Assembly: GCA_048213135.1 (NCBI GenBank) | Contig: PS015384.1 | Span: 1 to 61,848 of the forward strand | Direction: 5' to 3' | From: Reclinomonas americana ATCC 50394 | Taxonomy: Eukaryota | Length of the DNA: 61,848 nt | Shown here: in pieces, positions 1,464 to 61,700 of the stretch | How positions within the stretch are numbered: the stretch's first letter is position 1 | How the letters are laid out: each line of letters starts with the position of its first letter | The notes under the pieces: generated by a model | Databases searched by the model: none | The model's input: only the letters and a program-made list of their open reading frames with translations | Told to the model about the DNA's origin: nothing | Made by a program: the position numbers and the translations under genes

Positions 1464-4192
1464 ATGGTGACGGTGACCAAGACACCGGGATCAGGAAATG
1501 GCAGTGGAACCGGATCGCCGCCCGGCCAGGAGTCGCCGCCAACCACGAAGATAGAAGGCGGCGGGAAGTTGACGCCGCGAAAGAACAGTGGAAGTGCGGC
1601 TTCGATCACCATCTCCATTACTGCCTCGCCAAATGGTACTGCTGCTGCGACAAACGCATCAGCAGCAGCCACTGGCTCAAGCGGCGAGACCATGGCGCAG
1701 CGGATGACCAGCGTGGGAGGCAGGCGAGAGAACTTTACTGCACACTTCCAGATCAGCGGCAACAGCACAAGTAGCACAGTTGAGTGGTGTTTTTTTTCCT
1801 TTTTCAGTCCTGTATCCGATGACGATTGGGCTTTTTTGTTTCTCACTTTTTGCGTGATGTGCAGCCCGGTGAACCGCCATCGAAGATGCGCAAGACTTCG
1901 CCGACATCCACTGCCGTTGACCCGGCCATTACTGGCGTGTCACCCGGGCAGTCGTTTATGGGGCGCATTCCGCAGGCGGTGCCGCACGCTGCCCCCAAAC
2001 AACAACAGCAGCAGCAGCAACACCACCAACAAGTACCTGTCGTCATACCGCCCTCCACGCGCACGCCATCCCCATTCATGGTGGCGGCCAACCTTGGTCT
2101 CACTCCGCCGGGCTCTCCGAGCCAGGCGCCCAGTGTCCATCGGCACAACATGCGTTCACGGCAGGTGGCACCCCTAATTGATCAATCGTCGCCGCTGGGA
2201 ACACCGTTGCCGGGCGTCGTGGGTGCCATTGGAGGCGGTGTGGGTGGTGCCAGTGGTGGTGTCAGTGGCATTGTCGGTGAGTGCATGTAGGCAGCGGTCT
2301 GTGGTGTTTGTCGACCACCCTCACAGTTGTCTGTGTGCAGGCTCGAGGCATGCGTTTGGTATGCCGCCGGTTTCCACACTCACTCCACCACCTTCACTGC
2401 TGCAACGATCTGCTCGAAGCGAGGTATGTGCTTGCGTTGTACTCTTGTTCCTCTCGCCGCGTGTGTGTGTGTTTACCGTGCACTCCAGCAGCAGCAGCAG
2501 CAGCTGCCGGCCTTGGCGCAACTGGCTGCATTTGCTGCGGCCGAGAACGCCACATCCACCTCCTCTTCAATGCCAGCTGCAACACTGGGCAATGGACCAG
2601 CAGCGGCGGCAGCGGCAGCTGTAGCGGGTATTAGTGTGGCTCCAACGCTGGCCAGCATTCCAAGTCTGGTGGCCGGTGCCGGTGTTGCCGGTGGCATTCT
2701 GCCTCCGTTGACATCGGCTGTGTCAGCTGGGTCGATCGACCCGAGCTCACTGTCGCTGCTGATGGATCAAAGAGCATTCCGCAGCAACGACAGCCTCTCA
2801 GCATTGTTCGTTCCACTTCGGTCGCGCGGCGGCAGCGGCGATCTGTCGTCGTACGCCATGTCGCGATCGCATCAGTCACGTGGCGGCTCCGGCGACCTGT
2901 CGGCATTTGCATTGTCGTCCACTGCTGTGCGTCCCGTGCACGGCAGCAGCGAGTTTGCTTTGTTTCCACGGTCGCGAGGCGAGAGTGGTGACTGGAGTCA
3001 GTTGATGCTTCGAACTGGGCGTGGTAACAGCGGCGATTTCACCGGCGTCTTCAATCCGACCACGCTCAGGCCGAGTCGCGGTGGCAGTGGAGATTTGTTG
3101 GGTGTGAGCGGCACGCTGGGTCGCACACCACGTGGTGGCAGTGGCGACCTCTTCCCCAGCAACTTCTCACCGGTGCTGCTGCCCAACTCGGGCAACTCCT
3201 CTCCACCACCGCCATTCTCGGCCGCCAACCCTCTCGATGCTCAACAACAGGCCGCGCTGCAACTGGCTCAGTCGCAGGCGGCCCTTGGTGCAAATGCGTC
3301 GATCGTGCCGGTGTCACAGGGCAAGGGTGCGCCTCCGCCCGTCGCCGCCGCCGCTATCGGTGGCGGTGTCGAGTTGAATGCCTGTGCTCGGTGTGCAAGA
3401 CGGTGGGGCTTGACTGTGACCGACGAGTTTGCCAAGAGCCCGTTGTGGGAGGCCTACGAGACGGAGAGAAGAGCACTCGACGAGCAGCCGCCGAGCCAGA
3501 CGTCGCAGTTCTACTTGGAGATTATCCGTGAGGCTGTGTTGCTGGCGTTGCGGGAGACGAGTTGCGTGCTGTGCAGGTCAATTGTCGCGCTCTCGCGAGC
3601 GAGTCCTCACGTGTGCACTGTCGCGCGCAGCCCTGGATCACAGCACGCAACAAGCAGTGAGTCAGTCACTGTACCTGCTGTCGGTGCACATCGAGTCGGA
3701 CGAGCAGCGCACGGTGGCCAATGTGGTGACATGTCGCTTCCGTCTGTACTCGCTGCACTCGCCCAACTCGGCCGACATTGAGTGGCACTTTGAGCAGCAG
3801 TCGGCCAAGCCGGCGCTGCAGAGACTCCGTGTTCTCTTGCGTGTCCCTGAGGATGAATCACCGGCGGCCGAGCCACAAATGCTGGAGTTTGTGAGCCTGC
3901 CGGACTCGTCCAAGCTGGCCGACATTCGCATGTTGGACCTCGTGGGCCAGCACGTGTTTGGCAGTCGAACGTCGTCGCCCACTTCACGCATGCCATACAT
4001 TGGTCTTGTCGGTCTGTTGGTGGCTGTCACTGGCACCGTCAATTGCGACGTGTATCCTGCAGAGGCGTGCTCGCACATGGCTCGTGAACTGGTGGTAAGT
4101 GTGCACGCCGATGATGATGATGTTAGTGTGTTGCTCACACTTCGTTGCGTGCCATGCAGTTGGCACAAACACAACTAAGAGCTGTGAACTAG
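1464..4192 (+). CDS. Hypothetical protein: low-complexity Q/A/S/P-rich N-terminal two thirds with RGxSGD repeats, globular C-terminal domain; 5' end uncertain
   Basis: Exons join in frame via GT-AG introns (1779-1864, 2277-2340, 2424-2477, 3561-3630, 4095-4159) and end LAQTQLRAVN*. An acceptor-like CAG at ~1438 suggests further upstream exons. Confidence 0.65.
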
Positions 4193-4501
4193 CCGTGACG
4201 GGATGGCCGTGGTGGGGTGGTGTGAAAAAATGTGTGTTCAGTGATGTGTTGTGTTGTTGTTGCAGAGAAAAACGGCGAGGATCCCAGCAAGTGGTGATTG
4301 ATAATTATTTGTCATCGAGGGTTTGCTGTCTCTTATTTTTTTCTTTCTTTCTCCCCTAATGTGAATGCGTATCCCGTGCCGATGGCGCAGCGTGTGTGTG
4401 TGTGTGTGTGTTTGTGTATTTGGAGACTGGCCGGGAGGGGATGATGAGAAAAGAGACGATAGGCATTTTCGTAAAAGAGTATCGCGAGTTGTTTACGTGT
4501 T

Positions 4502-6805: not shown

Positions 6806-9800
6806 CAAACAGTGAGCGAGAGAGTGTGTGTGTGCCACACGCCAATGTGAATCGCAGACGCGCACCTGGTCCACCTGCGCCACGAATGGCACATCAAAGT
6901 CGGAGTCGTTGATGACTTGCAGTGTCTTGGTGACCGCCTCGTTCTCCAAAACATCGCCCACGTCAAACACTTCCGCTCCCGGCTCCACACGCACCACTGG
7001 CGAAACGCCCTATTTCGATGCGTGCACAGTCAGCTGACATGAATCGCAGCGAGGAGACACTCGAGACGAGGAGACGCAACTCGGCCGCGCAGCTGCATAA
7101 TGACCTTGTTGGTCTCGGTGCTATCAATAACCAGGCGGAAGGTGTAGTTTACAGGTCGCAGAGGTCGGAAACGAATCGTGATTTCGCACTGCCCGCCGGC
7201 TGGCAACTCGGACACACCGCTCAGGAACGAGAATGGCCTGCCACAAACAACAATTATCAGCAGAGGCGAGAAGCACACATTCCGTTCGATGTACACACAC
7301 CCGAAAGGGTCAAGAGCGGGCACCGACAGCGTGGTGGTCCGTGGACCGCGGTTGAACAGTCGGAATGTCATCGTGTTTTCCTTGCCGGCAGCAATCTGGG
7401 AGACAACTGCGTTACCACCGATGGCCACTCCATAGGGGCAGGGCAAGGGGGGAAAACGCAACATCGCCAAACTCGAGCATCTGCGATTGTTGATTCTGTA
7501 CAAGCGAAACCAGAGCTGGCTGGATGGCCGTCGTAAACACTTCGAAATGCAGCGGTGAGCCGGCGAATCCTTGAATGAACCACGGAATCATCCACGTTTC
7601 GTGCACTCCCCACTGGTCGTCCAGAGGCGCCACCGACGCACGAGCAGAACCAGACGTCGTCTCTGTAAGCAGTCACACACAGTACGTGTCAGTGCTCGGC
7701 AGTGTCGATCACCGAGATGAAGTCGACTTACCACGACGAACAACCGTCTGTGCAGTGTCGTTCTTGGCGTACACCTCCGGGAGAGCGTTGAAGGACACCA
7801 CGACAAACTGCTTGCCCATTGGCGGTACTGTGGCTGTCGACGGTGTCACTCGCAGCAGCGGGAGGCCACTGCAGCGACGGTGGCATGGTGAGATTGAACA
7901 TTCGATACATACACACACCCTGCGTGTAGTGCAGCGCAACTTGTCACGCTGCAGTGGACCGCCAGCATTGGCCGCCGCCGAGGCCCCACCATCCGGCCGG
8001 AACACGGCGTTTGGTGGTACTGTAATGGTAAACGTGTGGCTCTGCGTCTTGGAGTTGTTCTGCATGCAGAGAGTGTAGGTGCTCTGGTCGCCAACGGCTG
8101 TCGCGCACATGTCGACTCGAGTGCAGCTCAGCTGCAGTGGCGCGTCAACACCCTCGCCCGTGCAGACAATCTTGGTCTGCACCCAGATACGCGTTGGTTG
8201 CACACACTCACACACATGGATGGATGAAAGGGCGCAATGCAAACCTGACGGCCCTCCGCGGTGGTGCACACGATCGGCAACTTGAAAACGGTGGCCGAAT
8301 ACGGCGCAAACGCCACATGAAGCACACGTGATTCGCCTGGCAGCAGAGCACCGAAACCTCGCGTATCGCTATCGGGCGACACGCTGATGCCGCGCGGCAG
8401 CTGCACAAATCCAAAGCGCTGCGGCAGAGCCGAGATGTTGCGTACCATGATTGGGTGTGCCACCGTCTCGCTCGTGGTGCAAGTGCCGAAATCGATTCGA
8501 GTGGGCGTCACCTGCAAGTTGTCCTCGGTGATCTCGCCTTGCAGTCGGAAGTACAACGGCATGGCCTGGTCGGGCACGCGGACGTGCACAGGCACATCAA
8601 ACATTGCCGAAACAAACTCGTCATTGACCTGGCATATGCGTGCGCGCACATGTCAGTGCATGTCAACGAGAGAAGGATCAATTACCACCACCACGTACCG
8701 AGCGGTACACATATCGCTTGCACTGCTCGATAAAGTCCGCAGTCGGAGTGAACTTCATGTGCACCTCCAACGCAGAGCCCGCTTGCACATACGCCATGCT
8801 CGGCACAAATTCGAGGAACGGCTGCAGTGGGCGTGGCACCTCGAGCTGTGAAAGGGGAGGACTCAGCACGCAATGTGTTGCAGGGGGACAGAAATCAGCA
8901 ACGCACCTCACAGCGCAGTGCAACCTTGCCGCGATTTCGCAGCACGATATTGTCGCGGTACATGGTGTTGTAGAGCATGCACTTCAGGTCAATGACCTCG
9001 CGCTCCACATACATCGGCACCTCGCCGCCGTATGCCACCAGGTCGAGATACACCGGCTCCACATCCTGCGGCACACGCACACACGTCAAACATCGGCATC
9101 GTGCACCTCCAACGCGCCACCACACACACACACCTTGGAGGGACGGAAGATAACCTCGAGCCGACTGGTGTAGTCGTGCACGTGGTACGGCGTAAACTTG
9201 ACAGCCACCTTGACGACCGAGTAGCCGTCAACATCGCCCATGGTCTGCGAAAACTCAAACACTGGATTCTTCTCGCTCCCGCCAGCACCTTGTTCCGCAG
9301 CAGCAGCAGCTGCTGCTGCTGCGCCACCATCGCCGGCACTGGCGGCAAGCGACTTGCTGGAGGAGCTGCGCCCGAGAGGTGGTGATGGCGATTTTGCGGG
9401 CGTAGCATCAGCACCACCACTGCCGCCCGTGCGAGGCGTCATGCCGGCCGACGTCTCGTATGCGTCGACAACCTCCAGTGCAGCACCACGCAGTTCAAAT
9501 CGACACGGCAGTGCGCCGTCGTTGCGAATCGTCAGAGTCTTGGTTGAGCTCTCGCCAAGAGTCACGCTGCCAAAGTGCAGCTGCGCACACGACACGAAAT
9601 ACGACATGAGTGCGCGAATCCTCTCCAGCCTACGTGCTGCAGACCTCCACGCACCTCCTCAAACGGAATCACCGAGGCGACAATCTTCTTCGTGTAGGCC
9701 ACCAGCGGAATGTGCAGCGGTCCGGTGGCAGTGAGCAACGGCAACACAGTCTCAATGTCGGCGTTGACCTTGGGCGAAAAGTGCACAACCAAGTCGCACG

Positions 9801-12678: not shown

Positions 12679-15600
12679 ATGAGGTGAGTGATGCGACCTC
12701 CCTTGTCTTCTCTCATTCCCTCTGTCTCTCTCCCTCACACACAAACACTCACTCACTGTGCACGTTGACACGACCGCAGCGACCTGGTTGGACAGGTTCG
12801 TCATGAGTGATCTTTGCATTCTCTCACTCAATCTCCGCTCACTGTGTGACTCGGCGAACAGCTCATGGAGATGGGCTACGATCGCGAGCGCGCAGAGATT
12901 GCCGCCTCGTCATCGCGCGACATCAACGAGGCACTGAGCATGCTCAATGTTTCGTCGGAGTATTGACTATGCTCCGCATCATCCTTCCCTCACGTTGTCG
13001 CCAACAACAGGGCGAGACAGAGGCCCCCAAGCCGCCAACCCCGCCACCACCACCACCACCACCAGCTGCGTCAGAGAAGACTGCAGCGGCGCCTCCTGCG
13101 GTGCTTGATCGTGTGCTGGTCGATGATGACGCGGGAGAGTCGTACCACTCGGTGGCGAGCTCGGCACCGGAGGGGGTGCCAGTGGGCGCGGTGAGTGTGC
13201 CGGGAGTCATGGACCACGGCGAGCATGCAGTGTCGGCGGTGAATCTGCGACGCGCACACTTGCTGTCGCCGGCGCGGCTGCGTGAGTATGGGTTGCATGA
13301 GCAGGCGGCGGAAGTGGAGGCCAGAGCAGCAGCAGCTGCTGCTGCTGCTGCTGGTGACTGTGCGTGGCTCCTCCTTGTCTCTCTGATCGTGGTCAATGGT
13401 CGCTGATGTGTAGGTGTGCATCGGTGTAGCTGCTGGTACCACAATGTCGAGTGTGGCGAGTGAGGACGATGACTCGGCGCGATCGTTTGTGCCGCTGCGT
13501 GTGCGTCCGCACATGCCTGTGTCGGTGGTGATTGATGAAGTGGCGAATCGGGGCCTCTGGCCGGCCGCCTCGCAGAAAGTGGTCGTCGGTCAGCTGTCGG
13601 AGAATGTTGCGTTCGTTGTCATCAGGTGTTTGTGTTATTGTGGCTCGTCCTTTACTTACGAGCTCCGCGCAGTTTATCTTCACGGTGGAGGCGCTGTTGG
13701 CCGACTGGATGATGCTGCCGGCTTGTGCGTCTCGTGTGCCTCTTTGACGGTGTTTTTCTCTGCACGGTGAATGACGCTGATTTGCAGACGGCATCAAGCG
13801 ACCTGTGTTGCTGGCGATTCGAGACTATCTGTGCGCCACGCTTGACGCAGACACACTGCGCAAGGTGCATGCTTGTTCCGCGTCGTTACACACACAGCAC
13901 CAGTTGCTCGCTCACTGATACAAACTCATAGCACTCGCATCTCGCCGTGGCGGATCCCGATGCGACGGTGGCCGCCATCACTACCCTGCTGACCTCGCAG
14001 ACGACACTGCCGCCTGCCGCCCTTCTCATGGCAGCATCGGCGACGGTGGCTCACAGTGGCGTGACAGCGGCGCTGGCCAACCAGATGCAGGGCGCGTCGC
14101 GCACCACCCCTGCGGCTCCAGCATCCGTGCCGCCTGCGGGTGCCTCGCAAGTGTCACAGGATACGGTCTCGTTGACCTCCACCACTGCGGCAGAGGCTCG
14201 CTCGGCCGCTCGTCGTGCAGAGCCCGACACGACACTGGAGGATCTCGTGCAGATCATTGATGCGTGCTCCAGGGGGCTGGAGGTGCACTTGACAGGTGAG
14301 TGGTGGCATTCGCACATCCGCCCTGTGTTACTAGTCATTGAGTCGATGCCACGCGCTGCAGACAATGTGCTTGGTCGCGGGAGCTTTGGTGAAGTGGTGT
14401 TGGGATTCATCGAGACGGACCAGAATCCGGCCGGACATGTGGAGGTGGCAGTGAAGCGCATCCCGGTCGGTGGCGCGCGGTCGTCTGGTCAGCTGCGCGA
14501 CGTGGCGAATGAGATTGAGTTGTTGTCGAACCTCACCGGTCATCGTAATCTCGTGCAACTGTTTGGTGCGTTTTTTTGGGGGAGATCTGTGCGACCTCAG
14601 GAGAGCGTCGCAGCCTCATCCGTGGTTCGCTCCCTGCAGATGTGCAGTACGACGAGAAGCGTTCCGAGGTCCTCTTCGTGATGGAGCTGTGCACCGGAAA
14701 CGCACTCTCCGACTACATTCACGACTACTACGAGGAGCACGAGGGTGGTCAGATTCCGCTGGAGACCATTCGCGACTTTACCTCACAGCTGCTGTGGTAC
14801 GTCTGCGTCTGTTGTGGGAGTGATTCATTGTGCATACATGTTTTTCTGATTAGTGTTTTGCAGGGGCCTGTTTTGCCTGCACGACAACTTTGTCATTCAT
14901 CGCGATGTGCGTGTGTGTCCACTGCCAGTCGTAGGTTCGCCGAATGCTCACGCGTCTGAGTTGCTGTGCAGCTCAAACCGGCCAATGTGCTGCTCACTGA
15001 GGATGCCGACTCGGTGATTCTCAAGCTGGCAGACTTTGGGCAAAGCAAGATGATGGAGCAGACGACAGAGACGGCCACGGAGAATCGCGGCACGCCAGCG
15101 TACTGGGCACCGTTTCGTGCCCCCCGTACTCCCCCCCGATCTCACACGTCGCTCTCGTCTGACATTATGCACCAGGGAGATTTGCGTCGGCAAGCAGGGC
15201 AGCAAGAGTCACCGCTACGGCTTGCGTGCCGACGTGTGGAGTCTCGGTTGTGTGGTGCTGGAGATGGCCACCGGCAGCCGTCCGTATCCCTCGTACAACA
15301 AGGCAAGTGCTCCGCTTGTAGAATTGGCGCAAGTTCGCTCCCGTGTTCACGTCGTGCCTGCAGTTCCAAATCGTCACCGCTCACATGCGCGGTGAGCTGC
15401 CAGAGATTCCGGCGTCGTTGCCGGAGCAGCTGCAGTCGTTCCTGCGCGAGTGCCTGCAAGGGTGAGGTCGCGCAGTGCATGCGACAATCATGCCTCTTTG
15501 TTGACCACTCTGCAGTGATCCCAAGAAACGGCCGTCGGTGGCCGAGCTCATGACGCATCCGTTTGTGGTGGAGAGCTGGGAAGACATTGACGAGGTGCAG

Positions 15601-16488
15601 GATGCTGCTGACCGAGCCACCCACCTTAGACGCCGCTCCGAACCCGAGCCCGCTGAACCCGAGGCTGCTGCATCGCCCGTCGTAACATCGTCACTCGCGA
15701 CCGACAGTGCTTCCTCGGCTGCAGCTGACGCAGAGGTGTGTGTCGGTCCTCTCTCTCTCCCGACGCGTTGCAAGTTATTGTGAGCCTCATGTGCATTCGC
15801 GGGCACAGAGCTCGGTGCTGCGCACCGAGGTGCGTGTGCAAACGTCCAAGGAGCTGACGCAATTTATGAATCGACTGCGACTGGAGGAGACGCAGCGTCG
15901 ACAAGAGTACGAAGAGGTTCCGTGAAGCTGTCTGTCTCTTTCTTTCTCTTCCCTGCTATTGACACGGCCGTGTGGCAGGCGTTCCGCAAACTCGCTGCCG
16001 AGAGGCGTGAAGTGGAGATGCAGCAGTCACGTGTTGCTGCGCAGCTGGACCTGGTCAAGCGGGAGAGAGAGCTGCTGGAGGAGGAGCGCAAACTAGCGCG
16101 CGAGGAGCACGAGCGTTGCGTTGTCTCGTGGGCGACGAGTCCGTGATTCGAGGAAAAATGTTCCTGACGATGCCCTCCGTCGACAGAGTACATCGCAGAC
16201 ACGGAGCGTGCACGACGAGACTGGAATGCCGACGAGGAACGGCGACAGAGGCTCATTGCGTTTGAGTTGTGGAGCAAGGTGCGCCGACCTGTGCTTGCGT
16301 GCATGCGCCGACGACACGCAAATCAATGTTCGCTGATCCAAAACCTCGCACAGCAAAATCAAGCCATCCGCAATGCCGCGCCCGGGCAGACCATCATGTT
16401 CCAGGGCAGCAACCATTTCGTGCCACCAAAGGGTCCCTTCAATGTGCCCTTCCCCGCGAAGCCGCAGACGCGACCGACTCCCCGTTAG
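12679..16488 (+). CDS. Ser/Thr protein kinase, STE11/MEKK-like, with N-terminal UBA domain, SAM-like segment and C-terminal coiled coil
   Basis: Spliced product has LGRGSFG, VAVK, IHRDLKPANVLL, LADFG, GTPAYWAPE and ADVWSLGCVVLEMATG. The N-terminus MSDLVGQLMEMGYDRERAEIAASSSRDINEALSMLN is built from exons 12679-12683, 12780-12795 and 12862-12948. Ends QTRPTPR*. Confidence 0.85.
15303..15363 (+). other. GC-AG intron (AAG|GCAAGT...TGCAG)
   Basis: This donor keeps the kinase frame PYPSYNK|FQIVTAHMRGELPEIP; the GT at 15307 shifts the frame. Confidence 0.85.
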
Positions 16489-16673: not shown

Positions 16674-17282
16674 TCACAAGACCACACAGTCCTTGTTGCG
16701 CCGGCTTTCCTCGTCCTTCTTTTTCGAGGCCCAGTGCGTATCCGCTTGGAACGCCTGTACTGCGCGCTCCAGCTGACCGTCATGCTCGTCCAGGTAGTAA
16801 CTGCACGCAGGGTGGATTCATGATCAGCACCGACAATAACAACAACGAGTCACGCTTTGCGGCACGAAACTTGGCCTCCTCGCGTGTCGCATTCGTCTCC
16901 TTCATAAACTGCCTGACGAGCGCCGCTCGTTGCATAGCAGCCACCACCTCTGGCGACTGCGGCGGCGGAGTGGGCACTGCCGACGCCAGCGCCGTGGGAA
17001 TGAGAATCACCGGACGCTGAAGCAGCACATCGAGATTGCCGACACACGAATTNNNNNNNNNNNNNNNNNNNNNNNNNNNNNNNNNNNNNNNNNNNNNNNN
17101 NNNNNNNNNNNNNNNNNNNNNNNNNNNNNNNNNNNNNNNNCAGTCATACTCCTTGTCTCTCTTTCTCACGAAACTTGCGCCGGCAGCTGTGAGCTCTTTG
17201 CGTCGCTGCCCTCGAGCAGGTTGCGCTCAAAGATGGTGGCCAGCTCCGTGTCTTGGCCGGTCGATAGTCGCCGACGCAACAT
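16674..17282 (-). CDS. Small protein with probable LysM domain (mostly in gap), UBA-like domain and C-terminal CAAX box
   Basis: MLRRRLSTGQDTELATIFE...[gap]...NSCVGNLDVLLQRPVILIP...LVRQFMKETNATREEANYYLDEHDGQLERAVQAFQADTHW...NKDCVVL*. Confidence 0.65.
17053..17140. other. Assembly gap (N run)
   Basis: N characters. Confidence 1.
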
Positions 17283-36921: not shown

Positions 36922-37175
36922 GCTCACGCACTTAGCACAACTCTCTCGGTGTGAGAGTGATCACACGTGAACCGTCGATCGATCAACTGTTGTTGTTGCA
37001 CAGGAGCGAGCGCCAGTTGCGTCCTCTTCTGCCTGTGCACTCTGCGTCACACACGCGCACACGCGCACAGTCGCCTCTGCGTGCGCGCGCGTGTGTGCGT
37101 GTGTGTGCTGCTTGCGCGTCATGACTGACACACACACTCGCGCAGAGAGACGCACTCGTATCACACAGCATCGAG

Positions 37176-43200: not shown

Positions 43201-46200
43201 GAATGTGAAGGCGACAAAACATCGGGCGTGGCTTCGCTCTTCAGCTGCCGCATGATGCCCTCGAGAAGCGTCTCAGTTGGACCCGTGTCGCCCGGCGACT
43301 CCACACCAGCTGCACACTCGCAGAAGTGAGCACACCCCAAGAACGACACGAAGAATTCAACAGCACAAACTCAAGTACCGGCGGCGCCGGCCGCAGCCGC
43401 GGAGGAGCTGCTGCGAGTGGCACGTCGTGGCTGCTGCAACAGTTGTGCAATCATCTCTGCCAGACTCTCGGCATGGCGGGTCTGTTCGCGCGCCTCGGGA
43501 GTCGCAGTCCGTGCATGCTCCACCGTCTCCGGCGCATAGTTGTAGACGGTAAACTCCACCGGATCGGCATAGAATCCAAGAACTGCACACCGGCACCACT
43601 GCGTGTGAGGACTTCGCACAAGTCGGCGATAACTCGCACGCCCAGACAACACAACTCTTGTCATAAAAGTTGCACTTGAGCCACTGCTCTTCGTTCTCAG
43701 GCTGGTCGGCGTAGATGGCGACCTGTCGGTGGAAAGCGGGGCGATCAGAGGGCGGACTGCCAACAACAAAACAGCCGCAGATTAGTGCAAACAGTAAAGA
43801 CTATCCCATGCTGCACCTTCGCCATCAGCACGCAACGGCCGAATGTTGAGCTTGGGCGACGGCACTTTGAATTGCACCAGGGCTCGAGTCAAGGCCGACG
43901 CACTGCACCGCACAGAGATGATGAGTGCGCACACCGAGGTGAACCACTCCACCGACCCCCACTCAACGCCATCGATCGCACGCCGGCCACATCCGACGCC
44001 AGCTGCTTCAACAGGAACATCACCATGCGCGGCGGCGGCGGCTCCTCGGTGCGAATCTGGCTGCAGATGAGACCCGTGATGAGCGACTGGAACTTCCAGT
44101 GTCGCACCGGGAGACTGCATCGATGCCGGCGACTGATGAGTACCAGCAAATCAACCATATAGCGGACACTCGGACGCAACTTGGAGGTGAGCAGAGTCGT
44201 GTCCAGATCGGCCACAGCGTCGGCGGCAGTTCCGACAGCCTGCACGCCGCTCTCGCCGCACATGTCGCCGGCGTCGACAATGTTGAGCAGGAAATGGATC
44301 TGTGCGCATGTGCACATGTCAACACTCACTCGAACAAGACTCCTTGACACTTGACTGTGCATTGCAAACTCACAAATCCATTCCACCTGGCCAAAGCGAG
44401 TTCACCTGCGGACGCAGACAAACACAATTTATATGAGTACACGAGAGGGAGGAACTCGTGTCACGCCGGGAGACGCAACGATTCTCGGGCGTAATGGCGA
44501 CACCACCATGGAAGTGGGAGCGTGCGATGGTGATGAGCGGCAATTCCCATGTGGCCAGCAGCTCGTTGGAGATCAAGTTCAGCATCTCTTGCAGGGACAC
44601 CTGCAACAAGCCAGGCGCAGCAGTCAGTGATCGGCACCAAAGATATTTCGCGTGAAACACCCGCGCGTCCACCTTTTCCAGATGGGTCGTGGTCAGCATG
44701 GTCAGGCAGAGAGATGTGAACAGCTTCCAGCTGCCGAGGATCTTGGGCAGCACTGCGAATCGAAACACGATACTCAGTGAGACGGCCGCAATAAAACATG
44801 ATGTCGAAAATAGGGAGCAGCGAACCTTGGAAGCTGCCCAGCACCCACGCAGCGCCCTTGATCTCGTGCGCCTTGGCATCTGCACAGGAGAGGGTTGGTT
44901 TCGAGACGACAGGCGCCACACGCAAGCAGGCAGTTCTCTCACCGAGTTTCGTCAGCGAACGGAAGATGGTGGGTATCACACGACGGCAAATCTCTGCAGG
45001 GAACGCCTGCCAGAACAGCTCCAAAGCACCTTGTGCCGCTCTACGCAACATAATACCACAGTCAACGTATGTCACCGTAGGAATGCACGACGAGGACGCA
45101 ACTGTCGAACGTCGACAAATTCGTGGAGCGACAGCGACAGCATTATGTGGATGAGGTCATAGTACGGACGAGTGATCACCAGCGCGTTGCTCGACTGCTC
45201 CAACAATCTGGTCGCGTGACGGTCGACTGCATGCAGGGCTGTGTCGAGAGAGGAATGAATGAACAGGCACGCACACGTCGCAATCAAATAGCAGCAGCAA
45301 ACGAACCCAGGTGGTGGCGCAAGTATCGGCCGTCCGGCTCGAACACGTCGTACACGTCGCTCTTGAGCAGACTCCAGAATGAACGCAAAGCATTGGTGGC
45401 CGCAGCGCTGCCGCCTCGTGGTGCCATGAGAGCGATGGTTAGCTGCTCAACGCCATACAATCAGCCAAGAGACCATAGATCATGCGCGTGGTTATCTCGC
45501 GAACCTTGCAGACATTCTTCCAGAACTTGGGCACATCGACCAGTGGCTGGCCAAGCTTGACGTACATCTTCTCGATGAGACGCACGATGCGCACGCGCAC
45601 CGTCAGCAGCTCGCCTGCACAAAAGGCAAGTGTGAGACGGGAAACAGGGCAGAACGGGGGCGACAGCGTGGACGCAACGGTACGCCTCAGAGTCGTCGGG
45701 AGCATACGCCGTTCCATCGTCAACCGGAAGCGTAATAAGCGGCACCTCAATGATCGTGGAGTCGACGCTGTAGGAATCCAATGTGAGTCGGAGCGATACT
45801 GCGCACATGGTGGTGAACAGCGGCACCTCAAGTCATCCGTCGGGATCTCGGGAATGGCAAGCGAAGCGCCAATGATCACCGTCTGCAGCATGGCAATGGC
45901 GTCGAGAGCTACACTCACGTCCATGCGAGTCGACCCTCTGCACACAGAGAGAGAGGTCAGCAGAAAACACAGCCTGGACGAGCATCAACATCGATCACGA
46001 AACTCGACTGGGGGTGCTCCATCCGCACTCCACTCAGCAATAAACTGCTCCAGCGTAGCAAAGCACTCCTTGATGTGCGTCCACGCCAATTCACGCACGC
46101 GCGACACTTGCGCGGCTTTCTGCACCGGTACAAGCGGTGAGATGACAACACTGTTGAGCGGTACCGTCGATTTGCAGGGAAGTGACAAACCGGCTTGTCC

Positions 46201-49200
46201 CACTGGAACTCGGCCGTCTCGGCCGTGTACGTGCGAGCCCAGTACTTCCAGCTGGCCTCCTGGAACTCTTGCGATTCCCACTCGGTCGGCGACACGCAGC
46301 GAGCCTCGCTCAACGCCGTGCCCAGCAATTGGTCAAAGAGCTGTTCAGCGTGCAGTGAGCGCACCAGGAAAGACGCGATCACGACCATGCAGGACGCCTA
46401 ACCTTGCCAACAATCTCGGACCCAGCACGACGGCACTTGCGCAGTTTGCTCGTCATTGCCGCACCGGCGATTTCCATCAGTGTCGGACTGAGTGGTCATA
46501 CAAGTGAGAAGCGCAACACGGGGGGGCTGGGCGAACATGAAAGTCGTGGTAACGCAACAGCTGCTCCTCCACAATGCACAACTCGGCTCCGTCAATGGCT
46601 TCCGCAAGGAAACCGAGATTCCACAACAGCTCGCTCTCGGTCAGCGATCGCAGCTTCATACCTATCACGAAGACACACGTGAGCGACGAATCCTCTCCAC
46701 ACAACAACAGCAGCAGCAGGAATGAGATTTGCAGACCCTGCGCCGTCTTCTCCAGCAACAGTCCGTGGATGTGTCGCACAAAGTGCTCCAAACTGTTCGT
46801 GGCCCGGACCACCATGCCAGCCTGTCACACAGGTCAGCGACAGAATGGTTGTGCACAAACAACTATACGAGCACACGCACTGTAGCCACGCCCATGTCCT
46901 CCAGCGCCGACGACAGGCCGTCGTACACACATCGCTTCAGTCGACTGCGCATGTCTGGCGAGGTCTGGTGCACCAGCAGACTCAGCGTGAACAGCAACTC
47001 CATCGACAGGCCGGCGTCGTGTTTGTTTTGAGGGATGATGGTGCGGACCTGCGACATCCCACGTTGACAACAGCAGCATTGCAGCAATTCGCAAGGCGCA
47101 GCAAGACGCAACGAATGAGAGGCATCGCTGCAGAGTCAAGAACAACCACGAATCCCAGTTTGCGCCAATCGACGCCAACGCCTCACTGTGCGCAACTCCC
47201 GGTCAGCAACACATCATCACTGTGTGTCGACGAGCTGAGACAGTACCGATCCGCTTCGGGGAGAGCAAGGAAATCCGCGCGCTGTGTGTTGTACGGAAGG
47301 GCGGCTACGCACGACAACACGTCTGTTGTGCACACAATGTCGCCAGTGAGACACTGGCGTGCGCGACCGATAGTGGAAAATTAAAACACACGACGAAACT
47401 CGAAACCACACTGCATGCCAACACCGAGTTGGTGTTGTTTCCGGGGTCAATGGCCAGCGGCAGGTGCGGAAGGATTTGCAGCAGACGGCTGGGAGCACCG
47501 GGACCTGTAAGCAGGGCGCGAAACGAGTACCTCCACGCCAGGAGCGCCGACGTCGACCGGTGAATCTCGTGCACGGCATCAAAGGCACCACTGATGGCCT
47601 CGGTGAACCGCGGCAACGTGTAGGTCGGGGAGATGACTGGCAACGCATTGCAGTGAGCAATCGTTCGACCACAGCAGCAAGCGTGAAACGAGGGGACGCA
47701 ACAAGAAAGGTACTTGATGCCCAGCACCGCAATGCCCTGCAACGCGGGATTCTCCGCATACATGGCCTTTAGCAGCATCGGTAGCACCAGAGACGAGAAA
47801 CGCTGCGCGTGTTCGGGCTTGAGCATCCATTCGTCGCTGTAACGGTGCTCGCGGTTCAGCTCTGCGGGGGCACGGGGATGAGTGAGACTTGAGGAGAAAA
47901 GTCTGCTCTCAATGCATCCAAGTCGGCCGACCTTGCGAGAGACGCCGGGAAAAGTTGAAGCAGAGACCGTCGAGGAAGGAGCCGAGCACCGATACATCGG
48001 CCTGCTGCGACGGATGGTAGAAGCTGCGCGACGGCATGAACAGAGAGAGCGTGCTGGGAAAAAACAACATGTCAACCCCGCAACATCTCAATGGACTCGA
48101 TGAGGCGTCCGAGGTAATTGAACGCCATATCCGACGTCGGACTGAGCATGTACACCAGCAGGCCGGCGCAGGCACGAGCCGAATTCGCCGTGTTGTACGC
48201 CGGGAACAGACTCTGCTCAATCTCGCTGTTCATCGACGGCATTGTGGAGTTGGCCATTGCACCGACAGTCAAGTCTGTGGCACGATTCAGAAGTGCAGTT
48301 CAGCGACACCTGCACACAAGCGACGACGCACCGAGGGTGTCGAGGAGCTTGCTGTAGATGAGATCGATAAACTTGGACCAATCGATCCGGTCTGCCAGAC
48401 GCACGGCGGTGTTGAGCAGGTAGAAGAACATGGCGCTGTCGAACATAAAGTCGGTGCCTGCGAGTCGGAGTGCGTGAGTACAAACTCCCGCCAGGCCCCC
48501 GCAGAGAACACCAATCACTGCGCACCACGCCACGTCCACAGCTCCATCAGCTCGTCGAGCACCTCGTCAATGTTGCTCGGGCACGGAGTGAGGAAGATCA
48601 TCATCACTTGGTACCACAGCTTGCTGACATCGGTGGGATACGAGATGCGAGCACGGCACATGTCCATGACCTCGGCGGCGCTGGAGGGTGGGAAGTAGTG
48701 GCGCGCCGTCAGGGCCAGCGTCACCAGATCGTCAACCAAGTGCTTGGTTCCCGGAGTGAGAAGCAGCAACAGCAGCAGTCAAGGAGAGCACAGGATCAAA
48801 AAAAACAAGCAAGCGAAGAGGAGTTAAAGACATCAAGGATATGCATTGACCCGGTGCATAAGCTGCTGGGAGCGGAAGAGCAGCTTGCGAAGCTTCTCAA
48901 AGAGCGGTCGCCACTCCAGCTGGAAATCATCCGGCAGCCACAACGGCTTCCTGCACACACACACACAGATCATCATCAGCATTGCACCCGAAAGAAGAAG
49001 GAGGGAGAGGAAGCCACGCACTTGAGCAGCGCAATGACGGCATTGACAAAGAAGCCTTGCGTACGCTCATCCATCTGCGGTGCGAACGTGGCGCGCCACA
49101 GGAAGCGCGTCAGCTCCGCATGATCGGGCTTGCTGAGCTTGTACTTGAATGTGCGCATCGATCTGTGTGCGGCGAACTCCATGAGATGCACCACCACAAG

Positions 49201-49806: not shown

Positions 49807-50942
49807 ATGAGCGACAAGAAGGTCCTCAAGCTTCCTCTGTTGCTGTTGTCGACAGTGTGCTGACGTGGTGTGCGTTTGCGCAGAGTGTTGGATGCCGTCG
49901 GTGCTGGTACGATGTGTGGTTTGTCATCTGGTTCGCAGTGTACCCCGTGACGGTGCTCATCAGGTGCGTGCTTGTTATGCGGGTGTGAGGCGTAGGCGTG
50001 GAGTGAGTGAGTGAAAGAGTGAGAGAGTGAGTGAGTGAGATTTGAGGAAGAATTGTGCATGATTTCGCGCGCGTTGTGTTCATGTGTGCATATGTCGAGC
50101 TCTCATTGTCTTTCTGCGCCACACATGCGCATATGCTGCCGACAGTGACTACTTCAACTTCCAAGGCGCCATGCACCGTTGCGTCTGCGTCTGTGCGTGG
50201 TTGGCGCCATGCGCAATTTGGTTCACTCACACGCGCACACACCGCGCCCCCTCCACAGAGGTTGACGTGCACGAGCTCGGCAGCTACGAGATGTGGCCGT
50301 GGAACCCGCCGAAGCAGCTGCTGCAGCTGTACCTGCAGTGGTGCGATGCCGCCGATCCGCTTCTGTGCGCCAACCCGCCCTACTTCCAGACCATGGAGGC
50401 CATCAACATCCTCTTCCTGCTGTGGTTCTCTGTCGTGCAGCTCTTTGGCTTCATTGGCGGTGCGTGTGTGTGTGTTAACCAACACGCAAAGCAAACATGC
50501 GCACCCCCACGTGTGATTGATTGGTGGTGATACAGGCTGGAACTCGATCCGCAAGCTCGGCCTTGTGTGGGCCGCCTGCTGCTTCTACTCGGTGGTCGTC
50601 TGCTGCGGCGAGGTGTGTGTAATACGCGCGATAGGTCGATTCCTCGACGTTACCGAATTGTGTTGTCTGCAGACCTTCCTCGGTGCGTCGACGTCGCGCT
50701 CGCCGCACCCGCAGTGGTACCTCGCCATGTACATCCCGTACGCGGTGTTCCCGGTGCTGCTGTTCTGGCGTCTGTGGAGCGAGAAGCCGTTCTCGGCCTC
50801 GGGACTGCCGTCGACGTTTGGTGCCCTCATCATGTCGCTGACTGGCATGGCCACGCTCGCGCAGTTCGGCTTCTTCATGTACCAGTTCATCGCCAAGCAC
50901 GGTGTCATTGTGTTCCCGGAGCTGGCGCAGTACATCTTCTGA
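49807..50942 (+). CDS. EXPERA-domain membrane protein (TMEM97/EBP-like)
   Basis: YDVWFVIWF...SD, YLQWCDAADPLLCANPPYF...E, GWNSIRKLGLVWA, YIPYAVFPVLLFWRLW match the EXPERA pattern. Confidence 0.8.
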
Positions 50943-54060: not shown

Positions 54061-54741
54061 TCTCTCTTTTCTCAACAAGTCTGTAACGGTCAGAATTGCC
54101 GACCGACGGACACCGATTGTGGAAATAAAACATCGGGAAGAACACAGCGACCGTCTGCATGCAGCGAGGTGAAGAGGAGGGTGATAGTGAAAAGAAGAAA
54201 GTGCACGCTCGGTCACTGCCGTTCAAACGCTGGTGACGAAAGATGGTCGGAAAAACAAAGATATCGCGATCGAGCGCGAATGCACACCACTCCCCGAATT
54301 CGAACACAAGGCCGCCACCGCCATCCCGGCAACGGAGGCACGATGTAGTCCCTCACCAGCAAGCCAATCTCCTTTCTTTCCGGGGGCACGATGTGCAGTC
54401 ACTGCACCGACAGCAACTACAAACCATCGCGATATATCGATATCGATCGAACAACGCGGAGCTCTCTCCGACCACACCACCCTTGACACACCTGTTGTGG
54501 CATCCGTCGTACCTTCCTGTGCATCCCTCCAAACAACAAGTTGTGGTAACGCCTCTTGCCACACTTGCGGCCTGCCACTGCCACAATTGGCAGGTGCAGT
54601 TGAGCAGCGTACACCATTCATGCTCCAGTATCTCTGTCGGGGGACACTTTTTATGTTCTTTGGATTATTCTGCGTCGCCGAGCACTCGCCGTGTACCTGC
54701 TATCTTCCCTCCTTTCTTCACCCATCTGCATCTTGCAGAAG

Positions 54742-56835: not shown

Positions 56836-58665
56836 CTAGCGACGAGGGGCTGATCGTGATGGGCCAGCCGAGGGCGGTGAGCTGCCACTGCCCAACTCGT
56901 TGATAAAGTAGTCGCGGAGATCTGGCGGCAGGGCATCGAGGTCGCGCGCATCGCGGAACACGCCCTTCGGCAGGAACTTGAGCAGCTTGGAAGCATGCTC
57001 CCGAATCATGCGCTGTCGCTCCTGCTCGATAATGGCACGACGAGCAGCCTGTCGTGACTCCTCGTCCTCCATCTCCTGGCGCTCACGCTGCCGCTGCTCC
57101 TCCACCATGCGCCGACGTTCCTCAATGAGTCGGTCAACCTGAATCACACGAGTGAGTTGTCGTCGTCAGTGATTTGCATGCGCATGGCCAAGACAAACTC
57201 TCCCACTCACCTCCTTGCGGTGGTCCATTTGCTTGCGACGACGCTTCTCTTGGCTGAGTTGCTCCAGGCGATCGTCTTCTGCGAACTTTTCCAGCATCTG
57301 GCGACGGAACTCGTCCTCCTCCAGGCGCTCGGCTTCCGCACGCTCGGCCTTGACACGCATCTGGAACTCGTTGGCCTGAATCATCTCCAGACGAGAGCGG
57401 ATGCGCTTCTCGTTCTCCTCACGCTCCTTCTCGCGCTGCTTCTTGGCCTCCTCCTCCAAGTGCAGCTCCACTAGCAAGTTCTCGAACTCCTCCTGCTTGG
57501 CGCGCTCCTGCAGAATGCGCTCCGATTGCTGCACACGCACACAGAAAACAGACACCGTCAGTCACCAGTTTCGAGAGAGGAGATGAAGAGCGTGTGCAAA
57601 GACGCAACAATGGCAAGCAAACGGTCCTTCTCGGCCTGCACACCCGCACGCTTGGCCTCGCTGACTGCTGCTCGTGACTCTTGCTCCTCCAGGTATCGGC
57701 GAATCTACACGAGAAAAAGGTACTCACATGAGTTAAAGGGACCGGACATGCCACACAAAATCCACGTGACAAACCTGCTCGTTCTCCTCCTGCTGTCTCC
57801 GTCTCTCGTTCTCANNNNNNNNNNNNNNNNNNNNNNNNNNNNNNNNNNNNNNNNNNNNNNNNNNNNNNNNNNNNNNNNNNNNNNNNNNNNNNNNNNNNNN
57901 NNNNNNNNNNNNNNNNNNNNNNNNNNNNNNNNNNNNNNNNNNNNNNNNNNNNNNNNNNNNNNNNNNNNNNNNNNNNNNNNNNNNNNNNNNNNNNNNNNNN
58001 NNNNNNNNNNNNNNNNNNNNNNNNNNNNNNNNNNNNNNNNNNNNNNNNNNNNNNNNNNNNNNNNNNNNNNNNNNNNNNNNNNNNNNNNNNNNNNNNNNNN
58101 NNNNNNNNNNNNNNNNNNNNNTCATTGTTCATCATCATTACCATCATCATGATCAGAGGAGAGCACACTGCCAGAGTCTCTCTCACCTGCACAACCTTCT
58201 CTTGTCGCAGTTGCTCTGTGCGACGGCGACTGATCTCATTGGCAATGCGCTCCTCCTCCTCCACCAGGCGCTGCTGTTGCACACGCGCGCGCTCCGACTA
58301 CATCACACACACACACAGGCGACATGACATGAGTGACACACTCACACGTGCTGTCTCTCTTCAGAGTGCGCGCGCGCAACTTCCTCCATGGCCTGCTCAA
58401 GTGCCAGCTCCCGCTCGTACTCATCCAACTCCTTCTGGCGACGAAGGCGCGTCACCTTTCCGTCAGAGTACTGCGCGCCCGCAGTCAGACTGTGTGTGGT
58501 CAGCATGCCCTTGAGATCCTGCTGAAAGTGGTCGCGTTGCCGCTCCTTTTGCATGCGCATCTCATAGAGTCTGCGAGTCGCCTGTTTGTGTACACACACA
58601 CAGGTAGAGTAAGTCACGCAGACGAGTGTGTGTGTGAGAGAGAGAGCGTGGTGCTGGCGGACCAT
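56836..58665 (-). CDS. MNS1: Meiosis-specific nuclear structural protein 1 (axonemal microtubule inner protein)
   Basis: Trichohyalin-like E/R/Q coiled coil, MLEKFAEDDRLEQLSQEKRRRK and C-terminal IIEQERQRMIREHASKLLKFLPKGVF; the first coding exon is the ATG alone. Confidence 0.92.
57815..58121. other. Assembly gap (N run)
   Basis: N characters. Confidence 1.
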
Positions 58666-58716
58666 TTTCGTGTGAGCAAACGGTTGTGGGTGTGAGTCAT
58701 CGATTTACAGTCTACA

Positions 58717-61700
58717 TTAATGCGTTTTTGGCTGTTCGCGCAAACATGTTTCCACGAGGCGCGTCACTCGCTGGCCGAGATCGTCCACCTGCGGGTGAAT
58801 GCTGAGCAGAGTGAAGAACAGTGAACGAGAAGGCAACATGGTGTGCCGGACCTGATGATTCCACGAGACCACGAGTCGTGAGCTTCGGCAGGCCACCGAC
58901 ACGCCGCCGACGTTGATAAAGTCAGGCGCCGACGAGGAGATGGGCACGGAGTCGGACACGGCTCTGTTATGTACGACGTGAGGTGTGCGAATGGGGACAA
59001 AGGGGAGAGCGCGACGAACTGAGAGAGGGAGCACAGAATGCCCTCGAGGGTCGCCAGGCCTTCGGCGTCCGAGGCCACGCGGTGCACCACGGTGTGTTTT
59101 AGGCGGGTGACCGACACGCCGAGTGTTTGTTCCGCCTCTGTTGGCGACACAAGCACCGGGACCTGCGGGAGGAGGTCAGTCACCAAAGAGCGAGAAAAAC
59201 ATCGCGCTCTTCAAACACCACCACCAACCTCGCGATCTCGCAGGAGCAGCACGCCACGCACGGGGACCGAGTCACCGGGACAGCCGCCATCGGCTCCCGT
59301 CACTGCCAGACATCATCACACTACTGTCAGAGTGCTGTTCAGAACTGAAGCGGGGTGATTGTGGACGCAACTGGCGGCAAGTCGGCCGCGGCTTTCCGCT
59401 TGCAGCGACGCCGAAATGTCGACACTCATGGCGGGCCCGGGTGGCACCGACAGCTGTGTATGATAGGAACTTGCAATGATAAGTGGCACTTAGGTCAGCA
59501 CTCTCATGTGCAAGGTGGAGCACGCAACCGAGGCCGCTCCATCTTCCTCCATCTCGAGAAATCGCGCATCATCCGGTGTGCCCTGGATGCTCACCGAGGT
59601 CCCATTCGGCGGCGTCTCCACCGGCACTCCGATTTCACGCTCGATGCGTCGCTTCAAGTGCGCCCTGCCGCGGCAACGAGAGTGAGACGGAGAGAAGACA
59701 ACAATTTTCGCTCCAGACAGCGCGCACATTTTGGCCTTCTCGCCATGCACCAGCATGACGTTGCGCGGCTGCACCTGACGAATGAGCTGGAAAATGCCCT
59801 TGGCATCGGTGTGCGCACTGAAAGACATGTTCTCCACGCGCATTTGCACTCGCACTCGTGTCTTGCGGTCAATGTCGACTTCGGGAGCGCCCGACAGGAT
59901 CTTGGCGCCGACCGTGCCCGGCACGCAGTACCTACACTCGCCCCCCGCCCAACGAATCAGTAACCCAGTGGACGGCGCCTTCGTAAGCAAGACTGACGCA
60001 CCCTGGAATGACCACCATGTTCTTCTCGTCTTCACACCAGGCGCGGAACACCTCCAGCGACAAACCCGCGTGCAGCATGCCAGGCGTGGCAAACAGGACG
60101 CACGGTCCCGGTGCGCGCATGAGCGACCGGTCAAAGGCCTTGATGTGCCGAAAGTCGAACATGTTGCTACCAAGCACGGGAGAACGTGAGCGTGCACTCG
60201 GTCGCCACTCCCTCACTCATTCAGAAACTCACCGATCAGTGAACGTGGTCCGGATCTTCTCGTTCGTCCACTGAATGTACAACTGATAGTACAAGTTGGC
60301 CTTCTCGACCAGTCCTGTGCGGAGGCGCAGACCATCATCAGCTTCTGTTGCCACCCTTGTCGGCGAGAAGATGTATCGTACCTGCTGAAAAGTACACTGG
60401 CACCGTCAAACCCATGCGCTCCCAGTACGTCTCGATGAGAATGCACAGCTCTTGCGCTCGACCGAGTGCAAACACCGGAATCAACACCTGCGCCCCGCCA
60501 CGTGAGCCACGCCACTCCAACGCACACACACACACACATTGAAGAGACACAAAGACCTTGCCACCACGCTGCACCACTTGATGCACGTTGGCCAGGAAGG
60601 TGCTCTCGCGAGTGCGTTTCGAGTCACGCACAGTGGTGGCGTAGCTGAGTTAGAAAGGTGAGCGTGTGGGTGAATAATAGGGAAAGGGATCACGCGTCAC
60701 GCACGTGGACTCGGTAATGAGGAGATCCGGTCGCAAGAGGTCGGCGCTGGCCGCTCCCAAGTGTCGATCCGGAGTCATGTTGTAGTCGCCCGTGTAGAGC
60801 ACACTCTCGCCGCCGCATCGCACGTGGAACATGGCGGCGCCGAGCACCTGCAGAATGCTCGCGTGAGAAGGAGACGGAGAGAGTGCCAAAGAGAGGGTCG
60901 ACCACGCAACATGGCCGGCGTAGTACGCCGTGATCTCCATGTCATCGTCGACCACCACAGTCTCGCGCAGCTTGACGCAAATCACTGCGCGCCCACATGT
61001 GAGAGGGAAAATCACCATCACAAGACTGGCGCAACGATACAGCAGCGCCTCACCCTTCTTCATGCACGCCGCAATGTCGTCGGCCGTGAAAAAGTCAGTC
61101 TCGCCTCGCCGATCCACCGCAATGCGTCGAAAGTCTTCCAGCAGAATCGGGCAAATGGCGCGCGTGGGACCCTGCCAACGCGCAACAAGTAAGCGAAAGC
61201 TGTCTCCTCACAGCTCAGCGCTCCCTTCCACGCAACTGTCATATACACTGGTCCACTGTAGCCGCACTGCTCGGTAAAGTACGGCAGCGATCCGCAGTGA
61301 TCCAAGTGACTGCTCACAATCGATGATTCTTGAGACAACACACTCTCACTCACTCCGCCTGCCTGCATGCAAAAGTGTACGCAACAAGTGCGAGATGATC
61401 ACACAGTCGATGATCTGACTGTAGTCGCCAGTGCCGGCGCCTCGCAGGAACGCAAAGTCGGGGAAGCGTCGAGCATCGTTGAATCCCATGTGCATTCCAC
61501 AGTCAAACATGATGTTGCGCCCACTGTGTGCATGCGTGTGTGTGTGTGTGAGACAGGCAGGCAGAGAGGGAACAAGGTGAGTGCTTCTGCACGCGATGCA
61601 CGCACCCCAGTGTGACGACAACACACGAGCGACCGACATCTTGCCTGTGAGTGTGCATGCATGCATGTGCGATGAGTGAGTGAGTGGACGTACGTGTGTG

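Follow-up and report, generated by a model that had tools for sequence, protein, structure and literature searches.

A frequent class of 5' splice sites in Reclinomonas americana, probably recognised one base out of register with the cut

The window analysed here is a stretch of 61,848 nucleotides (nt) from Reclinomonas americana ATCC 50394 (contig PS015384.1, forward strand). It is eukaryotic and intron-rich, has a GC content of about 58% and contains assembly gaps. Among its genes are those for the flagellar protein CFAP74, INTS11, WDR3/UTP12, EI24 and a lipid desaturase of the PEDS1/FAD4 type. The subject of this report is a class of predicted 5' splice sites (donors) of the pattern GTT-N-N-GT, foremost GTTGCGT, in which the downstream GT stands at intron positions +6/+7 instead of +5/+6. 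An initial annotation of the window had drawn attention to 28 such heptamers. All results come from this single window of 62 kb (61.8 kb) and from homologous proteins. Introns and junctions are throughout those of sequence-based gene models, a subset of which was checked by protein homology.

Genes were modelled with our own exon-chaining gene finder, which uses a three-periodic second-order Markov coding score and settles strand conflicts by exon score. Three models were used. The signal-free model consists of coding potential and bare GT..AG; it has neither a donor nor an acceptor matrix and therefore cannot prefer any heptamer. Frame-consistent exon chains were obtained with it, comprising 144 introns. 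A second model with added learned matrices (position weight matrices, PWM) had 195 introns, and the final model, to which a first-order donor model and a length prior were added, had 217 introns in 36.7 kb of coding sequence, i.e. about 6 per kb. The lengths of all predicted introns peaked at 58-80 nt. The acceptor reads Y-G-C-A-G, with C at -3 in 90% and G at -4 in 66% of the predicted introns. The branch motif CTCAC or CTGAC was present in 96 of 158 short introns (PWM model set), with the 3' end of the intron about 19 nt away (median).

Counting both strands, the window has 50 copies of GTTGCGT, compared to 7.2 copies expected from a uniform composition and 13.4 expected from a second-order Markov model, a 3.7-fold excess over the latter. 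The heptamers with A, C or G at the third position are not enriched (1, 9 and 15 copies of GT[A/C/G]GCGT, respectively; Markov expectations 2.8, 14.3 and 16.9). According to the first trained model 48 copies lie inside predicted genes, 45 of them on the sense strand; all 50 copies were classified as 29 donors, 12 and 4 positions in introns and exons, respectively, of the same strand, 3 antisense and 2 intergenic sites. GTTGCGT was also the commonest donor heptamer of the signal-free model, starting 16 of the 144 introns, and the next heptamers had 4 each (hypergeometric P = 1.4e-16; 50 of 8044 GT sites in the window are GTTGCGT). When a signal-free donor was within 12 nt of a GTTGCGT copy, it coincided with the first G in 16 cases, with the second GT (+5) in 4 and with position -12 in 1; 29 copies had no such donor.

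In the final model 51 of 217 introns started with a GTT-N-N-GT donor (Table 1). The share of this class was 16%, 21% and 24% in the three models (23/144, 41/195 and 51/217 introns); because the models are imperfect, these class sizes are estimates. GTTGCGT accounted for 37 of the 51, GTTTCGT for 7, GTTGAGT for 3, GTTCCGT for 2 and other heptamers for 2. All 28 heptamers of the initial annotation were recovered at their positions and strands, and 26 are donors in the final model; the model missed GTTGGGT at 55793 (+) and GTTGAGT at 53678 (-). The initial annotation had called its own count incomplete, and the count was indeed an underestimate. A test independent of gene models was based on the branch and acceptor signature CT[CG]AC..YAG. 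This signature followed 30-85 nt downstream in 16 of 49 GTTGCGT and in 10 of 27 GGTGCGT copies, the background being 814/7965 for GT dinucleotides in general and 7/50 for the reverse complement of GTTGCGT. The shifted-donor class is thus confirmed as genuine, and it comprises about one intron in five.

Donors of the pattern GTR-N-GT, with the second GT at +5/+6, are referred to as ordinary. Shifted and ordinary introns were alike in length, branch motif and acceptor: 47 of 51 shifted and 67 of 69 ordinary introns were 50-100 nt long, 48 of 51 and 60 of 69, respectively, ended in CAG, and 27 of 51 and 32 of 69 had a CT[CG]AC within 8-40 nt of the 3' end. Judged by their GT and AG ends, by reading frame and by branch point, the predicted shifted-donor introns are genuine short GT-AG introns of the U2 type.

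U12-type introns have a long conserved donor of the TATCCTT type and a matching branch. They share with the class described here that a second, sequence-distinct donor class exists in one genome. The donors of the window class are not of the TATCCTT type, a distinct branch is absent, and all other features are those of ordinary introns; an identity with U12-type introns was rejected.

The exact position of the cut was examined by protein homology. Five shifted junctions are placed closely, i.e. 61385, 61236, 60910, 7080 and 15112, and a sixth, 7462, weakly. For INTS11 a profile of 56 homologs was used, and 86 frame-keeping GT/GC-AG alternatives within 21 nt of the junctions were scored. All three GTTGCGT junctions in the conserved part of INTS11 ranked first, by margins between 5.2 and 6.5 bits (Table 1). 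The INTS11 homolog P0005, 63% identical, aligned without gaps over the three junctions ISHF/HLDH, YMT/GPT and AGH/VLG. In CFAP74 the homologs run through donor 7080 as RGR/GVSPVV; here the donor is right and the acceptor of the model is wrong. Donor 7462 is best in the CFAP74 profile by a margin of 1 bit only. This profile consists of four homologs of about 30% identity (the best match has 30%) and has low power: an alternative equalled or exceeded the model junction in 11 of 25 introns. In a kinase gene with donor 15112, in-frame homology to solved kinases halts at GTPAYWAP and restarts in the next exon. Profile, P0005 and kinase homology thus agree with the initial annotation, which had fixed the three INTS11 junctions and the kinase junction WAP/E by invariant motifs.

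The near variants GTTGCG[A/C/G], which the initial annotation had mentioned as well, account for 7-11 further predicted donors, none of 11 with a G at -1. One such site is a decoy: a GTTGCGC donor in INTS11 intron 4 (61036-61060, minus strand) was rejected in favour of the true donor AGG/GTGAGGC, 18 nt upstream and 14 bits better. Therefore, these variants cannot be counted as donors unless they are supported otherwise.

The INTS11 protein of the window has its nearest relatives among environmental transcripts and chytrid fungi. The best protein match is 75% identical over one exon, and the closest named matches are from chytrids, with 67-69% over one exon. A metagenome scan with P0005 returned 80 INTS11 loci. 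Identity to the window INTS11 was at most 66% in the 25 top-scoring of these, and a shared donor pattern was absent in the six that were inspected; these loci are too distant for a cross-species test of the donor pattern. The gene model joins INTS11 to a long coiled-coil-like coding region rich in Glu, Arg and Lys (56836-58581, minus strand) across a run of N (57815-58121). This region, downstream of the assembly gap, probably belongs to another gene or is an artefact of the model.

Sixteen shifted donors are located in a single gene of about 46 exons (40235-49737, minus strand), which has weak matches to the HEAT repeats of PSME4 (PA200/Blm10). A search with the reading frame of its middle region against 1.84 billion representative proteins gave a single match, a fragment of 76 amino acids that is useless for junction tests. 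The PSME4-like protein accordingly is very divergent.

The shifted class differed sharply from ordinary donors in the last exon base. In the final set a G at -1 preceded 3 of 51 shifted but 51 of 69 ordinary donors (P = 8e-15). In the second set the figures were 3/41 and 39/54, in the signal-free set 2/23 and 18/26 (Fisher P = 2.4e-5). The single PWM of the second model rewards a -1 G at every donor, so its bias opposes this result. This bears out the rule in the initial annotation that exons ending in G avoid the class. A GT at +6/+7 that merely mirrors the TG/GT-rich background and is independent of the -1 base, the contrary outcome named there for the genome as a whole, is not what the window contains: the copy number of GTTGCGT is far above the Markov expectation of 13.4, and the dependence on -1 is strong. 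Against raw DNA the depletion of G is mild because only 14.6% of the GTT trinucleotides in the window (214 of 1462) have a G before them; the bases preceding all 50 GTTGCGT copies are A16, C11, G3 and T20. The depletion is strong when codon position and intron phase are taken into account, with 3 observed and 16.6 expected.

Donors with T at +3 which have the GT at +5/+6 (GTTCGT, GTTTGT, GTTGGT) carried a -1 G in 5/6, 8/10 and 9/10 cases in the three sets, those with the GT at +6/+7 in 2/23, 3/41 and 3/51. The last exon base therefore tracks the downstream block and not the T at +3. The composition of -1 in the shifted class (A22, C11, G3, T15; expected 9.5, 14.9, 16.6 and 10.0) paralleled that of -2 in the ordinary class (A24, C15, G9, T21; expected 13.1, 20.3, 21.3 and 14.3), and shifted -2 and ordinary -3 were both flat. 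Chi-square comparisons found no difference between shifted -1 and ordinary -2 (P = 0.3-0.56) or between shifted -2 and ordinary -3 (P = 0.77-0.86), although the samples are small and have little power. It appears well supported by these comparisons that the whole motif W-G-[G/T]-T-G-C-G-T, the exon side included, is displaced by one base relative to the cut. The claim that G/GTGCGT and /GTTGCGT represent one register with the cut moved by one base is thereby upheld on the exon side as well. The three shifted donors with a -1 G are located at 15917 (+), 34191 (-) and 59528 (-). Two of these are GTTCCGT; they may be weak ordinary-register sites outside the shifted class.

We suggest that a recognition register shifted by +1 serves about one intron in five and that a single motif, W-G-[G/U]-U-G-C-G-U, underlies both classes. 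We rate the probability of this reading at roughly 0.6. One 5' splice-site motif would be recognised in one register, and the cut would be made just before the GU which starts at its second or first position. With G as the variable base the site would be G/GUGCGU, with U it would be /GUUGCGU. In the latter case G+1 would occupy the slot of the exon G-1, U+3 that of U+2, and the last exon base that of -2. The motif reader would be the 5' arm of U1, probably changed to match the GCGU core, and the catalytic step would then use the nearest GU. In sequence terms our data demonstrate the sites, the use of the predicted donors at the exact base and a one-base shift at every informative position, including the exon side. 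A shifted register is the best explanation of the predicted class; what reads the motif we infer.

A precedent exists in mammals. At rare GU[U/C]AAGU sites (Roca and Krainer, 2009, as cited in Tan et al., 2016; PMC4856993) GU is kept at +1/+2, pairing is moved by one, G+1 is in the slot of -1 and an exon G is not needed (Tan et al., 2016); the test oligonucleotide for this register was ACA/GUCAAGUAUA (PMC4856993). The window class resembles these sites in that the cut is at GU, the pairing block is one base further 3' and a -1 G is not preferred. It differs in its core, GCGU instead of AAGU, and in that an involvement of U1 is proposed here. It differs also in frequency. In man, the validated noncanonical registers together account for 3119 of 201,541 sites (1.5%; PMC4856993), whereas in the window 16-24% of the introns predicted belong to the class, and no donor heptamer is commoner than its main one. 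In the literature examined, i.e. main texts without supplements, GTTGCGT or GUUGCGU was not reported as a splice signal, nor was a shifted class reported as a major mode.

Pairing with U1 was examined by nearest-neighbour duplex prediction, using the sequence of the universal U1 5' arm given in PMC4856993. This arm pairs with shifted donors at a mean of only -1.4 kcal/mol, compared to -6.9 kcal/mol for ordinary donors, and does so in no consistent register. Because the universal arm pairs so poorly, known U1 pairing alone cannot explain the class. With a hypothetical arm that matches the GCGU core, the shifted register was taken by 35 of the 51 sites (mean -6.7 kcal/mol), with no bulged form among the top registers listed. 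With an A at position 8 a hypothetical arm paired with 50 of 51 shifted sites in one continuous helix (-10.3 kcal/mol), yet the ordinary donors were weakened to -6.7 kcal/mol. The proposal of the initial annotation that the intron G+1 replaces the exon G-1 is partly supported: all its predictions at the level of sequence are borne out, including an enrichment of U alone at +3, which would be needed if +3 took over the pairing of +2. These calculations, in which the modelled arms are hypothetical, predict something unusual in U1 or its helpers. A changed U1 arm, a variant small nuclear RNA (snRNA) or help by a protein may even be required.

Several points weigh against a shifted register. The universal U1 arm takes it in just 5 of 51 sites and pairs close to zero in any register. 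Of the signal-free donors near a GTTGCGT, 4 of 21 used the second GT. Homology supports only six junctions, one of these weakly. Gene models err: the first INTS11 model had 3 of its 10 first junctions wrong, the GTTGCGC decoy among them, and one internal and one N-terminal exon were omitted at first. Finally, the data are from one window of 62 kb, not from a genome.

Of the alternatives, a dedicated or re-tuned snRNA fares best. A second or changed U1 might be fully complementary to GUUGCGU, or a U6, U5, U1C or LUC7-type component might be the reader; for such a reader nothing would be 'shifted'. Proteins of the LUC7 family discriminate between donors according to whether pairing lies on the exon or on the intron side. 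The -1.4 kcal/mol of the universal arm and the tight binding of the arm with A at position 8, despite its cost for ordinary donors, are both in line with a dedicated reader. Yet the 5' arm of U1 is among the most conserved eukaryotic RNA sequences, and all other intron features are common to both classes, which disfavours two machineries. We consider this alternative rather unlikely.

Changes in snRNAs have been proposed before. In Ostreococcus lucimarinus atypical GTGCGTG donors occur together with an ACTGAC branch, and snRNA changes were suggested, not found (Irimia and Roy, 2008; PMC2483917). The ordinary class of the window shares the GTGCGT core with these introns as well as a CT[CG]AC branch near the 3' end (at about 19 nt). 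Except on chromosome 2, Ostreococcus has few introns (PMC2483917), different from the roughly 6 introns per kb of coding sequence here, and the text of PMC2483917 describes no shifted class. We do not claim relatedness.

A bulged register is less probable still. In this case U1 would pair in the ordinary manner, C8 with G+1 and A7 with U+2; a single U at +2/+3 would be bulged and GCGU would pair as usual. Formally, GU-U-GCGU is GUGCGU plus one U. Bulges at +3 (or +2) have been proven in human cells (Roca et al., 2012, cited in PMC4856993), and those sites, too, have one extra nucleotide that separates GU from the pairing block further downstream. Unless -1 is G, the bulged and the shifted register would be equal in their number of base pairs, whatever the U1 arm. 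However, a bulge keeps -1 opposite C9, and a -1 G would be expected as often as in ordinary donors (51/69) and not in 3 of 51; the exon base -1 resembles the ordinary -2 instead. Moreover, other bulged bases should be tolerated, yet +3 is U alone, and GT[A/C/G]GCGT is not enriched. The minimum-energy duplexes with the core-matching arm take the mismatched, i.e. shifted, form and not the bulge.

That the heptamer is a composition or repeat feature of TG-rich introns with misplaced junctions is very improbable. Introns are in fact rich in GT and TG, gene models are imperfect and the first PWM model did not use 21 of the 50 GTTGCGT copies as donors. This artefact is already largely refuted by the excess over the second-order Markov expectation and the sense-strand bias, by the choice of the first G in the signal-free model, by the six junctions with homology support (one of them weak) and by a downstream branch and acceptor signature like that of GGTGCGT.

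Least probable of all are introners, young introns from a mobile element which brings along a GTTGCGT end of its own and inserts regardless of the last exon base. Uniform donor ends, a narrow length range of 58-80 nt and a lack of -1 G that could stem from insertion sites would fit. However, an all-against-all BLAST of 195 introns gave microsatellite matches only and no families, and target-site duplications were found in 0 of 51 (0.015 expected). Terminal inverted repeats were equally rare in both classes (1 of 51 shifted and 1 of 69 ordinary introns), which do not differ in length, branch or acceptor either. This origin was rejected.

Table 1. The 51 GTT-N-N-GT donors of the final gene model. 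'Listed' marks sites among the 28 of the initial annotation, 'signal-free' those picked by the signal-free model.
Donor	Position	Strand	Base -1	Intron (nt)	Signal-free	Listed	Remarks
GTTGAGT	1779..1785	+	A	86		yes	
GTTGCGT	3561..3567	+	A	70	yes	yes	
GTTGCGT	7074..7080	-	A	~71	yes	yes	CFAP74 homology RGR/GVSP; true acceptor 27 nt upstream of modelled one
GTTGCGT	7456..7462	-	T	67	yes	yes	CFAP74 profile, rank 1 of 7, 1 bit
GTTTCGT	12949..12955	+	T	62	yes	yes	
GTTGCGT	13606..13612	+	T	67	yes	yes	
GTTTCGT	15112..15118	+	C	64	yes	yes	kinase homology, WAP
GTTCCGT	15917..15923	+	G	62	yes	yes	exception at -1
GTTGCGT	16115..16121	+	C	72		yes	
GTTTCGT	16864..16870	-	A	70		yes	
GTTTCGT	17168..17174	-	A	158	yes	yes	over N run
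GTTGCGT	17722..17728	+	T	303	yes	yes	predicted length; acceptor uncertain
GTTGCGT	26498..26504	-	A	67	yes	yes	
GTTGCGT	28241..28247	-	A	75	yes		
GTTGCGT	28926..28932	-	A	69		yes	
GTTGCGT	30248..30254	-	T	58			
GTTGCGT	31020..31026	-	C	72			
GTTGCGT	31842..31848	-	C	75	yes		
GTTGCGT	31984..31990	-	A	68	yes	yes	
GTTCCGT	34185..34191	-	G	65			exception at -1
GTTGCGT	34516..34522	-	T	66			
GTTTCGT	35751..35757	-	A	336		yes	predicted length; over N run
GTTGCGT	36383..36389	-	T	68		yes	
GTTGCGT	37016..37022	+	A	153			
GTTGCGT	37665..37671	+	T	72		yes	
GTTGCGT	39039..39045	-	T	74		yes	
GTTGCGT	39169..39175	-	A	65		yes	
GTTGAGT	39340..39346	-	A	69	yes	yes	
GTTGCGT	41085..41091	-	A	74			
GTTGCGT	41251..41257	-	A	60	yes	yes	
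GTTGCGT	42915..42921	-	C	78			
GTTTTGT	43214..43220	-	T	77	yes		
GTTGTGT	43649..43655	-	A	73			
GTTGCGT	43830..43836	-	C	80			
GTTGAGT	43961..43967	-	C	65	yes		
GTTGCGT	44174..44180	-	A	66			
GTTGCGT	44473..44479	-	C	74			
GTTGCGT	45096..45102	-	A	62			
GTTGCGT	45672..45678	-	C	64	yes		
GTTTCGT	45997..46003	-	A	66			
GTTGCGT	46552..46558	-	T	71		yes	
GTTGCGT	47106..47112	-	C	64			
GTTTCGT	47393..47399	-	A	95			
GTTGCGT	47696..47702	-	T	66	yes		
GTTGCGT	50178..50184	+	C	81			
GTTGCGT	57602..57608	-	T	80	yes		
GTTGCGT	59365..59371	-	A	69	yes		unconserved part of INTS11, homology cannot place cut
GTTGCGT	59522..59528	-	G	75	yes		exception at -1; unconserved part of INTS11, homology cannot place cut
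GTTGCGT	60904..60910	-	T	63		yes	INTS11 AGH/VLG, best of 7 by 5.5 bits; gap-free against P0005
GTTGCGT	61230..61236	-	A	65		yes	INTS11 YMT/GPT, best of 4 by 5.2 bits; gap-free against P0005
GTTGCGT	61379..61385	-	T	76	yes	yes	INTS11 ISHF/HLDH, best of 9 by 6.5 bits; gap-free against P0005

The window further contains a MADS-box exon of the SRF type (54604-55314, plus strand) and a TALE/KN homeobox exon (20703-21341, minus strand). Together with CFAP74 and the other genes named above, they indicate an intron-rich eukaryote that bears flagella. An Rfam scan of the window detected nothing at gathering thresholds; with E values up to 1 it gave four chance-level matches and no snRNA. A weak match to mir-3149 at 37047-37106, with 34.8 bits on one strand and 33 bits on the other, is well below the gathering score of 100; it seems to reflect chance similarity to a palindromic or repetitive stretch in the region of the first intron of the lipid desaturase gene.

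How early recognition of the 5' splice site by U1 is coupled to the later choice of the bond by U5 and U6 has been studied mostly on a few sites in man that are rare exceptions. If every fifth intron of an organism separates recognition and cut by one base, that organism would supply hundreds or thousands of natural test cases and would yield a clear prediction for its U1 and U6 RNA sequences. For practical purposes, gene predictors trained on one donor matrix only will place such junctions a few bases off or lose exons, as the first models did here. We put forward only tentatively, as somewhat less likely than its opposite, that the lineage has re-tuned its reader, i.e. that a U1 arm or a U1 variant pair came to match the UGCGU core, whereby the recognition register would be uncoupled from cleavage genome-wide and a fifth to a quarter of the introns would be one base out of register, the catalytic core using the neighbouring GU. 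If this reading is right, this would be the first organism in which it is a mainstream mode of recognition and not a rare exception.

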